This document shows, in pieces, positions 27,893 through 30,400 of a stretch of DNA of 48,696 nucleotides. Both the position numbers and the translations under genes were made by a program. The notes beneath the pieces were generated by a model. That model saw nothing but the letters and a program-made list of their open reading frames with translations. It made no database searches and had not been told where the DNA came from. Positions within the stretch are counted from its first letter, which is position 1, and every line of letters begins with the position of its first letter. The stretch covers positions 186,001 to 234,696 of the forward strand of contig JANJGN010000926.1 in the NCBI GenBank assembly GCA_026770705.1, in the 5' to 3' direction. The DNA comes from Isurus oxyrinchus. Taxonomy: Eukaryota.

Positions 27893-28024
27893 GAAGTGCT
27901 GAATAGTAACTGAGGGCTGTGGTCTCAGGTGGTTTGGAACAATTTTTATTCACTGGTTGAAAGTCTTCGAGTCATGTCAGAGATTTTGGAGGAACATCGG
28001 GACCGGAGGAGGTGTTCTCCTGCT

Positions 28025-28450
28025 CCATATCTCTCTCTCTTCCTCTCATCCACTCCTCCTCTCCCTGTCTCTCTCTCTCCTACTCTTCCTCTCAATTGCC
28101 CTCTCTCCCAATCTTTCTCTCCTCTCTCCCTTTTCCTGTCTCTCTCTCTCTCTCTCTCCCTGTCTCATTCTCCCACTCAGTATCTCTCCCTCTCTCTCAC
28201 ACTATTTTTGTACCTTTCGCTCACTCTGTAACTCTCCCTTCCCTGTTAATTTCTCTCTCTTGGACAATCTCTCTTCCCTTTTCACTTTCCCTCACTCTGC
28301 ATCTCTTCTTTAATTTCTCCCTCTGTCACTCTCTCCCACCTATGTTCTTTCCCTTTCACCCCTCCCCGTCCCACTCTCTGTCTCTCTCTTCCAATCCCTC
28401 CCTCCCCCATTCCATCCCTCTCTCCGACTCTCGACTCCCAGCCTCTCTTT
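28025..28450. repeat. CT-rich low-complexity tract
   Basis: Degenerate (CT)n; similar tracts at 31590-31820 and 32330-32480. Confidence 0.85.
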
Positions 28451-28869
28451 AACCCACTCCCAGGCTGGATCAGTCTCCCTCTCACTATTCCCGGCGTGGG
28501 TTACATTTAAAATTCCTGTGGGGATATGTTCACTTCCTTGGAATTGTCTCTTCCCAGCTTTGCAAAAAAAGGGGGGGGGGGCTCGATTTCAAACATGCCT
28601 CCTGAGTATAACCGAGACAGACTGCCACTGAAATCAGCTTGAAATCAGAAAACTTTCTGTGGAAGAAACGAGCAGGGAGAAACCTTAAAATAAGGAATGA
28701 ATTTCCACCTACCGTGTCCGGGGAATCCACAGATTTCTCAATCGTCGAAGAACCTAAAGCAGTGTCAACCTGCAAAAAGAAAGAATTTATCAGGGAGAAA
28801 GTGAGAGGAGGATTGAGGGAGAGGGAGAGAGAGAGAGAGAGGTACAGGAGAGAGAGGGGGAGGAGGACA

Positions 28870-29430
28870 GACTTGCATTTCTCTAACGCCTTTCACCACA
28901 TCCCAAAGCATTTCACAGCCACTGAAGGAGGTTTTTGAAGTGCACTCACACTGTAGGAAATGTGGCAGCTGATTTGTGCACAGCAAGATCCCACAAATAG
29001 CAATGTGATCATGGCCTAGATCATCTGTTTTTGGTGATGTTGGGTGAGGGATAAATATTGGTCCCAGGACACCGGGGAGAACTCCCCCTGCTCTTCCTCC
29101 AAATAGTGGCTGTGGGATCTTTCACACCCGCCCGAGAGGGCAGACGGGGGACTCAGTTTAATGTCTCATTCAACATTGTTGCGCTCCCTCAGTACTAACC
29201 CTTTGACACTGCAGCACTCCCTTAGTATTAACCCTTCGATAGTGCTGCGCACCCTCAGTACTGTCCCTCCGTCAGTGCAGCTCTATTTCAGTACTAACTC
29301 TTCGACACAGCAGCACTCCCTCAGTACTGACCTCCGACAGTATAGCACTCCCTCAGTACTGTCCCTCCAATAGTGCAACACTTCCACACTACTGACCCTC
29401 TGAGAGTGCAGCACTCCCTCAGCACGGAGC
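28870..29430 (-). mobile_element. Deu-domain SINE (SacSINE1/AmnSINE1-like) with internal 33-bp tandem expansion
   Basis: Reverse complement of cccgtctgccctctc...aagatccca...gaagagcaggggagttctccccggtgtcctgg..aatatttatccctca; runs into 33-bp units at 29180-29425. Confidence 0.8.
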
Positions 29431-29487
29431 GTTGATCTACATTATGGGACTGAATTCCCTGGAGTGAGACTCAGACCAGTGATTTAG

Positions 29488-29825
29488 GTAGGGTTGTCGG
29501 GGCTGGAGGAGGTTACAGAGATAGGGAGGGCTGTAGAGGCTGTAGGAGGTTACAGAGAAAGGGAGGGTTGTAAGGGCTGTAGGAAGTTACAGAGATAGGG
29601 AGGGTTGTAAGGCCTGGAGGAGGTTACAGAGATAGGGAGGGTTGTAGGGGCTGGAGGAGGTTACAGAGATAGGGAGGGTTGTACGGGCTGGAGGAGGTTA
29701 CAGAGATAGGGAGGGTTGTAGGGGCTGGAGGAGGTTACAGAGATAGGGAGGGGTGTAGGGGCTGGAGGAGTTTACAGAGATAGGGAGGGTTGTACGGGCT
29801 GGAGGAGGTTACAGAGATAGGGAGT
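29488..29825. repeat. 37-bp minisatellite (GGAGGAGGTTACAGAGATAGGGAGGGTTGTAGGGGCT); reverse-orientation array at 32480-32760
   Basis: About 9 tandem units visible. Confidence 0.9.
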
Positions 29826-30187
29826 GGCTGAGGAGGGATTGAAAACAAGAATGAGAATTTCAGGGGAAATGACAGAAGGAAATGATGTTAAATTCATAGA
29901 GGGCGACAATATTAAAGGCACGAACATAATAATATCAAACTGCGGAAGTGACCAGTCTATCTGGGTGGTAGACGTAGAGTCATGTGCAAGAAACACCTCA
30001 CCCAGAGGGACATCTCTTAGCTTAACCTCGACAAGGAGAAGAAGTGACTCAGCTGCAGGGAGAGCAGCAAAGTCAGAGTGAACAAGACAAGTCGCCATTT
30101 CATCTGGGAGCTTCCCATCTCTGCCTGTCTCTTCTGATCTTCTGGCTCTGCTTTGATGCTTTGGTTTGTAACTAGAGGAGCTTCCTG

Positions 30188-30400
30188 CTCTTATACCTGA
30201 AACACTTGAAGGGGACAGCCGCGGGTGGGTAGCTGTGTGGTATCGCACCCATTTCTGGATATTGCAGTGTCGATGTTCCCTGTCCCACTGGCCTGGGACC
30301 AGCAGTAAGGTCACTGGGACATTGACTGTCTGGCGCCGAGAACTATCAGTCCCTCCGCAACGCCCTTCACCTTGTGCAAATATGTGTTCATATTGACGCA
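30188..30400 (-). promoter_or_regulatory. Candidate promoter: TATA, STAT-like, BMP/SMAD and C/EBP motifs
   Basis: TATAAGAG 30188-30195; TTCTGGATA 30253-30261 (imperfect STAT); GGCGCC 30332-30337 next to GTCT 30328-30331; TTGTGCAA 30372-30379. Confidence 0.45.

Follow-up and report, generated by a model that had tools for sequence, protein, structure and literature searches.

HAMP adjoins MAG in mammals. The HAMP, USF2 and MAG genes have been described in the vicinity of FFAR2 (PMC4453067), and a functional hepcidin gene is described as having three exons plus two introns (PMC6240063). Both BMP elements of human HAMP have the motif GGCGCC, and the proximal element acts together with a STAT site close by (PMC3879105); SMAD1/5 sites are often paired with GTCT/AGAC (PMC3203580). 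In the teleost Larimichthys crocea, six hamp genes have been reported, one of them silent and inactive (PMC6240063). The ferroportin of cartilaginous fish carries the hepcidin-binding cysteine (PMC8235187), and hepcidin has been reported in nurse shark plasma, while the whale shark predicted proteins are described as containing no orthologue (PMC9207270). Hepcidin does not appear in four supplement files of a white shark heart transcriptome (PMC3832898), which says little, because hepcidin is a liver gene. Among the best-ranked open-access matches, we found no paper on the structure or loss of a shark hepcidin gene.

We analysed a 48,696-nt stretch of Isurus oxyrinchus DNA (hereafter the window), the features of which are presented in Table 1. 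The minus strand at 30118-28713 contains, as judged from homology, exon 1 and exon 2 of an intron-containing hepcidin gene fragment, which also has promoter motifs upstream. A database search with the stop-to-stop frame that includes exon 1 (57 residues) gave two candidates, both of them isoforms of the Cetorhinus maximus (basking shark) locus LOC144671611 (E 7e-7), and when the window was searched by tblastn with the two exon parts of the basking shark protein, exon 1 (E 5e-15) and exon 2 (E 1.6e-7) were both identified at levels beyond chance. Isoform X2 of this locus (P0002) consists of a signal peptide, a part resembling exon 2 of the window, the sequence REKR and an 8-Cys peptide. It matches the Pfam Hepcidin model PF06446 with an E value of 1.5e-11 and the solved human hepcidin 1m4f with an E value of 0.028, the three-part precursor layout being common to human HAMP and the shark relatives. 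The hepcidin-like identity proposed in the initial annotation is therefore upheld: the best match is not a different secreted protein, and the support that had been foreseen, a continuation into an RxxR site and an 8-Cys peptide, is seen in it.

Over exons 1 and 2, the window shares 45 of 50 residues with isoform X2, as well as the MGSSQMK start, the exon boundary, the 57-nt length of exon 2 and the linkage to Siglec genes. Two hepcidin-2-like proteins of the catshark Scyliorhinus canicula (P0003 and P0004) have the same layout and share 29/50 and 32/50 residues with the window (20/31 each in exon 1; 9/19 and 12/19 in exon 2). When P0002 was used as a query of the 50% library, 13 matches were obtained, all with hepcidin-like Cys patterns except two aberrant isoforms. 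Two components of the hepcidin family are thus present in the window: a signal-peptide exon homologous to hepcidin precursors, judged by sequence identity, and a short phase-0 pro-region exon 2. In the relatives, exon 1 ends with ...SLSK, followed by V/I-D, which places the junction of exons 1 and 2 in phase 0, exactly at 30026/28769. Donors and acceptors were scored with the splice consensus motifs. The acceptor of exon 2 is intact (a pyrimidine tract and CAG), and its donor, ACG/GTAGGT, matches 6 of 9 consensus positions.

The TATA box, hydrophobic frame, donor one base short, 57-nt exon and isolated AATAAA described in the initial annotation were all recovered at the same places on the minus strand. 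The signal peptide also stands, with a different start: upstream of the ATG at 30103 (MKWRLV...), which had been taken as the initiation codon, lies an in-frame ATG at 30118 that adds MGSSQ. All three named intact shark hepcidins begin with MGSSQMK, so the start codon of the window copy is 30118, five codons before the earlier one, and the distance from the TATA box to the ATG is 77 nt. FXYD, DAP10/12, LEAP2, SCPP and KRTDAP were also considered as identities of these exons, and were dropped because the database search gave the hepcidin locus only (2 of 2 candidates). A Siglec leader was dropped likewise; the Siglec leaders in the window have a different sequence.

Table 1. Features of the hepcidin fragment and its surroundings (positions in the window)
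Feature	Position	Strand	Remarks
Siglec copy C, convergent	22466..25151	+	leader, open V exon (23449-23823) and first C2 exon (24738-25052); no later exons
LINE fragment	25215..26990	-	RVT_1 E 1e-7 for 25595-25999; ends read by eye
Gypsy-type LTR retroelement, 3' remnant	27024..27898	-	C-terminal half of an integrase, then a polypurine tract and a single LTR
AATAAA of the initial annotation	27945..27950	-	chance-level frequency
Start of intron 2	28030..28712	-	ends in a purine-rich low-complexity tract
Hepcidin exon 2 (pro-region)	28713..28769	-	57 nt, phase 0/0, intact splice sites; 16/19 residues identical to P0002
Intron 1	28770..30025	-	1256 nt, packed with 37-bp and 33-bp tandem repeats
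Damaged exon-1 donor	30020..30029	-	only good GT in GAG/GTTAAG, phase 2; phase-0 boundary AGG/TTAAGC without GT
Hepcidin exon 1, coding part	30026..30118	-	signal peptide; ancestral phase-0 boundary reached after 31 codons; 29/31 residues identical to Cetorhinus P0002
TATA box TATAAGAG	30188..30195	-	
Candidate BMP/SMAD element	30323..30337	-	GGCGCC (30337-30332), directly followed by AGAC; GTCA after a 5-nt spacer
C/EBP-like site TTGCACAA	30372..30379	-	weak; 277/5000 shuffles
Orphan sialoadhesin-like V exon, upstream	35858..36151	-	end cut off; runs straight into retroelement sequence

In contrast to isoform X2 of the basking shark and to the two catshark hepcidins, both of which are intact, the window copy is damaged at two separate places, which lie at least 1.3 kb from each other. 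The first lesion affects the exon-1 donor. As had been claimed, this donor falls short of phase 0 by one base: its GT is located at 30026-30025, within a sequence that matches 5 of 9 consensus positions. Since this donor is in phase 2 and the acceptor of exon 2 in phase 0, splicing at the remaining GT results in a frameshift, reading R-L-T-L-L-stop, with the stop codon (28756-28754) five codons into exon 2. The unspliced frame ends with ...SRLS and a stop three codons into the intron; no open frame is kept across the junction of exons 1 and 2. Among the alternative splice sites inspected (11 GT/GC in exon 1 and 3 AG near exon 2), there was no credible rescue of the frame: a single GT/GC position is in phase 0, but it scores 3/9 and falls within the signal peptide, and the AG positions all fail to fit phase 2. 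The lesion would stem either from one lost base or from a substitution at position +1 of a consensus-like donor; the second suits the better-looking downstream bases, but requires one extra change. Any transcript from the surviving promoter is predicted to encode at most a signal peptide of 33-36 residues, without the hormone.

The second lesion is the absence of exon 3. For the cleavage site (RxxR) and the 8-Cys mature peptide (PF06446), both present in P0002, there is no counterpart in the 48.7 kb of the window, on either strand (two N gaps upstream are unreadable), and the three-exon layout is accordingly incomplete. Both strands were searched with the last exons of P0002 (38 residues) and of the two catshark proteins, and the best match (E 0.03) was located inside a TG microsatellite; as a positive control, exon 2, which with 19 residues is half as long, was found at E 1.6e-7. 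A plus-strand exon 3 and a decayed remnant of this exon were rejected as well, for the best local scores belong to TG microsatellites or to the 33-bp repeat. The last exon of basking shark isoform X3 also has no match in the window. The initial annotation had reported no Cys-rich exon between exon 2 and the AATAAA, and this is now seen to hold for the rest of the window. With an out-of-frame donor and no exon 3, the window copy, as assembled, cannot encode hepcidin.

It is very unlikely that exon 3 lies outside the window, either past position 1, at a downstream distance of over 28.7 kb, or moved by an inversion, with the Siglec genes nested in a long intron 2. In the basking shark models, exon 2 joins three different last exons, one of them inside a Siglec, so long-range splicing does occur there. 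However, intron 1 of the window copy is only 1.26 kb long, the truncated LTR element described below indicates a deletion, and the out-of-frame donor of exon 1 would preclude the hormone regardless.

The region on the 3' side of exon 2 consists of (i) approximately 200 nt of ordinary intron, (ii) a purine-rich tract extending to 28030, (iii) approximately 130 nt containing the AATAAA, and (iv) the C-terminal half of an integrase. The AATAAA, which had been regarded as a poly(A) signal, does not exceed chance level, as the window contains 46 copies of this hexamer, so that the probability of meeting one in the 768 nt that follow exon 2 is 31%; the integrase match starts about 50 nt away from it. 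The integrase is recognized by two models, both weakly (IS481, E 0.003, from about 27898; rve_3, E 0.09), and Atlas K02A2.6-like/rve clusters match the retroelement at 0.92. Its polypurine tract (27264-27252) is followed by an LTR at about 27251-27024 (ends read by eye). The window contains no partner LTR, and the element lacks its 5' half and second LTR. Pfam analysis of three frames read through 28100-27560 found nothing, and PDB and plasmid searches around the AATAAA and the edge of the retroelement yielded no match.

LTR elements insert as whole units, and a 3' stump is therefore a sign of a later deletion. We infer that the 5' end of the LTR remnant marks the deletion junction. The homology of Siglec copy C to the fuller copy B stops at 25080, and copy C is without its subsequent exons. 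Since the hepcidin gene lacks exon 3 and the convergent Siglec C lacks its 3' exons, it is likely that a single deletion took both tails. The hepcidin gene would once have been arranged tail to tail with Siglec C, and a deletion ending inside the LTR element, at about 27900-28030, would have removed the last exon of the former and the 3' exons of the latter.

An assembly artefact, in which an intact hepcidin gene has been affected by a mis-joined or collapsed contig near 27900-28500 and by a base error at the donor, is unlikely, although several properties of the window are in its favour. A low-complexity tract lies exactly at the junction, there are two N gaps (41398-41645, 248 nt; 45446-45673, 228 nt), the duplicated Siglec blocks are 83-92% identical in a window rich in near-identical repeats, and the promoter, exon 2 and its splice sites are intact, the agreement with the working gene being the 45 of 50 residues noted above. 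This explanation nevertheless requires two independent errors, and there is no N gap between exon 2 and the junction. Moreover, real decay is evident nearby, since two of the three Siglec V exons (in Siglec A and B) contain in-frame stops that arose by substitution, and the upstream sialoadhesin-like exon represents a second clean fusion to the interior of a retroelement.

Siglec exons are located on both sides of the hepcidin fragment, which establishes its linkage to genes of this family. All of these Siglec neighbours are broken, as read from their exons (an orphan last Siglec exon is present at 17528-17412), and the hepcidin piece is, by the same reading, one fragment among many. The upstream V exon shows 65% identity to a sialoadhesin-like protein of Heptranchias (P0055) and 32-33% to other shark Siglecs, and in the PDB it matches sialoadhesin (E 1e-9) ahead of MAG (3e-8). 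The adjacent MAG locus proposed in the initial annotation is consequently not supported. For Siglec C, MAG and Siglec-8 score equally, the other Siglec V exons of the window belong to a shark-expanded Siglec group, and no MAG or USF2 gene is shown in the window. The query with one Siglec V exon gave 105 proteins of 160 candidates, with E values up to 1e-20; the named ones were all from sharks and rays, and the closest among the 105 (75-76%) were those of the basking and white sharks, which points to a lamniform origin; the tandem repeats of the window are likewise of a shark type. The best identity of the Siglec coding exons of the window to named basking and white shark Siglecs is approximately 92-93%. 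The idea that hepcidin was carried within a Siglec segmental duplication is not supported either: the homology blocks shared by the Siglec copies stop at 25080 and exclude hepcidin.

The linkage itself finds support in two other sharks. The hepcidin gene of the basking shark and five of its nine Siglec matches are on contigs of equal size, and the same applies to the two hepcidins and all 11 Siglec matches of the catshark, which supports the location of hepcidin and Siglec genes on one contig in both species. In basking shark isoform X1, exon 2 is joined to an antisense match of the intron between the Siglec leader and V exons, with 77% identity over 79 residues to window copy A and 82% over 56 residues to copy B, and a TAG acceptor is found at the matching place of copy B. 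This antisense Siglec sequence indicates that an opposite-strand Siglec is located downstream of hepcidin in the basking shark, too.

In the 5' flank of the fragment, the upstream motifs listed in the initial annotation were retained in part. GGCGCC and a C/EBP-like site are present, but STAT sites occur only with one mismatch and far from GGCGCC. The GGCGCC of the candidate element, located 137 nt upstream of the TATA box, is the sole copy in the window (1 seen vs 1.15 expected; 71/100 shuffles). When the 300 nt preceding the TATA box were shuffled 5000 times, 345 of the shuffled sequences contained it, which makes its position suggestive only. The combination with an abutting AGAC was obtained in 30/5000 shuffles, this composite pattern having been picked after the sequence was seen. 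We therefore regard GGCGCC-AGAC as a candidate BMP element whose presence is suggestive only, a lead rather than a result. C/EBP and STAT consensus motifs are those known for HAMP promoters. No exact STAT site (TTCNNNGAA) was detected within 505 nt upstream; the one-mismatch sites at 30679 and 30552 are 340 and 215 nt from GGCGCC, so none is next to the proximal BMP element. The window thus has neighbours of the Siglec family in common with human HAMP and may share a proximal GGCGCC element with it. It differs in that no STAT site accompanies this candidate element and no second GGCGCC occurs in the 6 kb scanned upstream.

The persistence of the TATA box, GGCGCC-AGAC and the C/EBP-like motif would also suit a retained regulatory role, in which a BMP-responsive promoter still fires and produces a non-coding transcript antisense to Siglec C; basking shark isoform X1 is an antisense read-through of this kind. 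We consider such a role the least probable of the alternatives: Siglec C is itself truncated, young pseudogenes hold their promoters through inertia, there were 0 Rfam matches, and isoform X1 may be a minor mis-splice.

It is most probable (we estimate roughly 0.6) that the fragment is an unprocessed pseudogene, a dead duplicate of hepcidin left in a rearranging Siglec cluster. Provided that the assembly is correct, both disabling lesions, the donor and the missing exon, are present, and the introns and promoter of the parent have been kept (intron 1, the start of intron 2 and the TATA box). An intact parent copy would be situated elsewhere in the Siglec cluster, and the dead copy would have acquired its donor lesion by the loss of one base or by a +1 substitution. 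The duplication postulated in the initial annotation is not visible within the window, which contains no second copy of either hepcidin exon, yet it remains the likeliest reading in view of the two catshark hepcidins, the Siglec-linked loci and the expansion in teleosts (PMC6240063). The catshark genes, whose products are identical at 47 of 50 residues over exons 1 and 2 and differ in their mature peptides, provide a precedent for hepcidin duplication in sharks. The hamp cluster of L. crocea illustrates, as described, duplication followed by the decay of a copy, as proposed here, but the decayed croaker copy retains three exons, whereas the window copy has lost the mature-peptide exon (PMC6240063).

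The exons of the fragment are still 90% identical to those of the working gene, and its promoter motifs and the splice sites of exon 2 are intact. This preservation weighs against a dead duplicate, as it would equally be expected of a gene that is live or mis-assembled. With the catshark as the outgroup, three of the five differences between the window and the basking shark are derived in the window, none in the basking shark, and two are unpolarised. Two of the five affect sites invariant in four intact sequences. Such changes would hint at relaxed constraint, but their numbers are too small for significance.

The basking shark, the closest relative, has a single annotated hepcidin locus (5 matches of 12 candidates), a point that weighs against a dead duplicate. 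Were the window copy the orthologue of LOC144671611, with no intact copy left, it would represent the loss of a sole gene, which is decidedly unlikely. Its Siglec-linked position and orientation do match those of the single basking shark locus, and no white shark hepcidin occurs among the same 5 matches of 12 candidates, as compared with 12 white shark Siglec clusters. However, annotation often misses this small gene: the contrast between nurse shark plasma and the whale shark predictions (PMC9207270) makes absence from annotation weak evidence, and the basking shark hepcidin gene is itself labelled "uncharacterized". The search with P0002 also gave two further shark-like matches without species assignment, and the hepcidin-binding cysteine in the ferroportin of cartilaginous fish (PMC8235187) also speaks against such a loss. 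There is likewise only a very small probability that deletion of a sole gene has left a lamniform lineage without a hepcidin-ferroportin axis, the stranded promoter being transcribed antisense to a Siglec.

A hepcidin pseudogene is of a known kind and, as a pseudogene, matters little. The promoter, through one candidate motif in one decaying copy, would hint that hepcidin has been under BMP-SMAD control for as long as there have been jawed vertebrates, and that the STAT site coupled to it in human HAMP may have arisen later or have disappeared from this copy. Should this be the only copy in the species, it would constitute a natural hepcidin knockout, of real interest for iron biology. The analysis identifies basking shark LOC144671611 isoform X2 as hepcidin, and places hepcidin inside a shark Siglec cluster, where it is exposed to the turnover of that cluster. 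The HAMP-Siglec neighbourhood of mammals is thereby extended to cartilaginous fish, as represented by three sharks.

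Each of the three Siglec copies located in the window (A, B and C) is broken. The V exon of copy A carries an in-frame stop codon and an FFRI motif whose Arg has been replaced; the remainder of the copy lies past the left edge of the window. Copy B also has an in-frame stop, close to the start of its V exon, and no match to a cytoplasmic exon was found after the transmembrane exon. Most of the leader-V intron of copy C is gone, the homology leaping from position 5652 to position 1023 of copy A.

Features of the window
Feature	Position	Strand	Remarks
Siglec A	490-6400	minus	leader near 6323-6270; V exon 990-613
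Siglec B	9547-14146	minus	leader, V, two C2 and transmembrane exons
Siglec C	21848-25080	plus	orientation opposite to A and B
Orphan Siglec last exon	17412-17528	minus	82% to basking shark Siglec tail
Sialoadhesin-like V exon	35858-36151	minus	acceptor intact
Repeat 5′ of each Siglec leader	6735-6864, 14516-14719, 21943-22123
Presumed LTR retroelement fragments	3683-4794, 18200-20703, 34700-35895
Tandem-array region (~11 kb)	37279-48696		mainly 70-72-bp, 33-bp, dinucleotide and 12-bp arrays

The orphan last exon contains two tyrosine motifs (LYANC and VYGNL), and no gene body for it is present upstream on the minus strand of the window. The sialoadhesin-like V exon is joined mid-exon, without an LTR, to a retroelement gag-like sequence; this fusion, which lies upstream of the promoter of the hepcidin gene, is likely to constitute a second deletion junction. 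From the ORF list, three more regions are taken to be fragmentary LTR retroelements, with presumably gag/protease/integrase-like frames. The tandem-array region includes two N gaps, and its 12-bp array continues past the end of the window.

Several NCBI shark Siglec models translate the repeat found upstream of the leaders, which suggests read-through or exonisation in these models.

Although labelled "uncharacterized", locus LOC144671611 of Cetorhinus maximus (P0001, P0002, P0005) is the basking shark hepcidin. Of its isoforms, X2 (P0002) alone encodes the hormone. The tail of X1 is Siglec intron sequence read in antisense, and that of X3 may be a piece of a LINE reverse transcriptase. Between the Cys clusters, P0002, the catshark protein P0003 and P0006 (another shark-type hepcidin) have a 4-residue, partly basic insertion, which is lacking in human hepcidin and likewise in catshark P0004. 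Because of this insertion, the three mature peptides are longer and more cationic.
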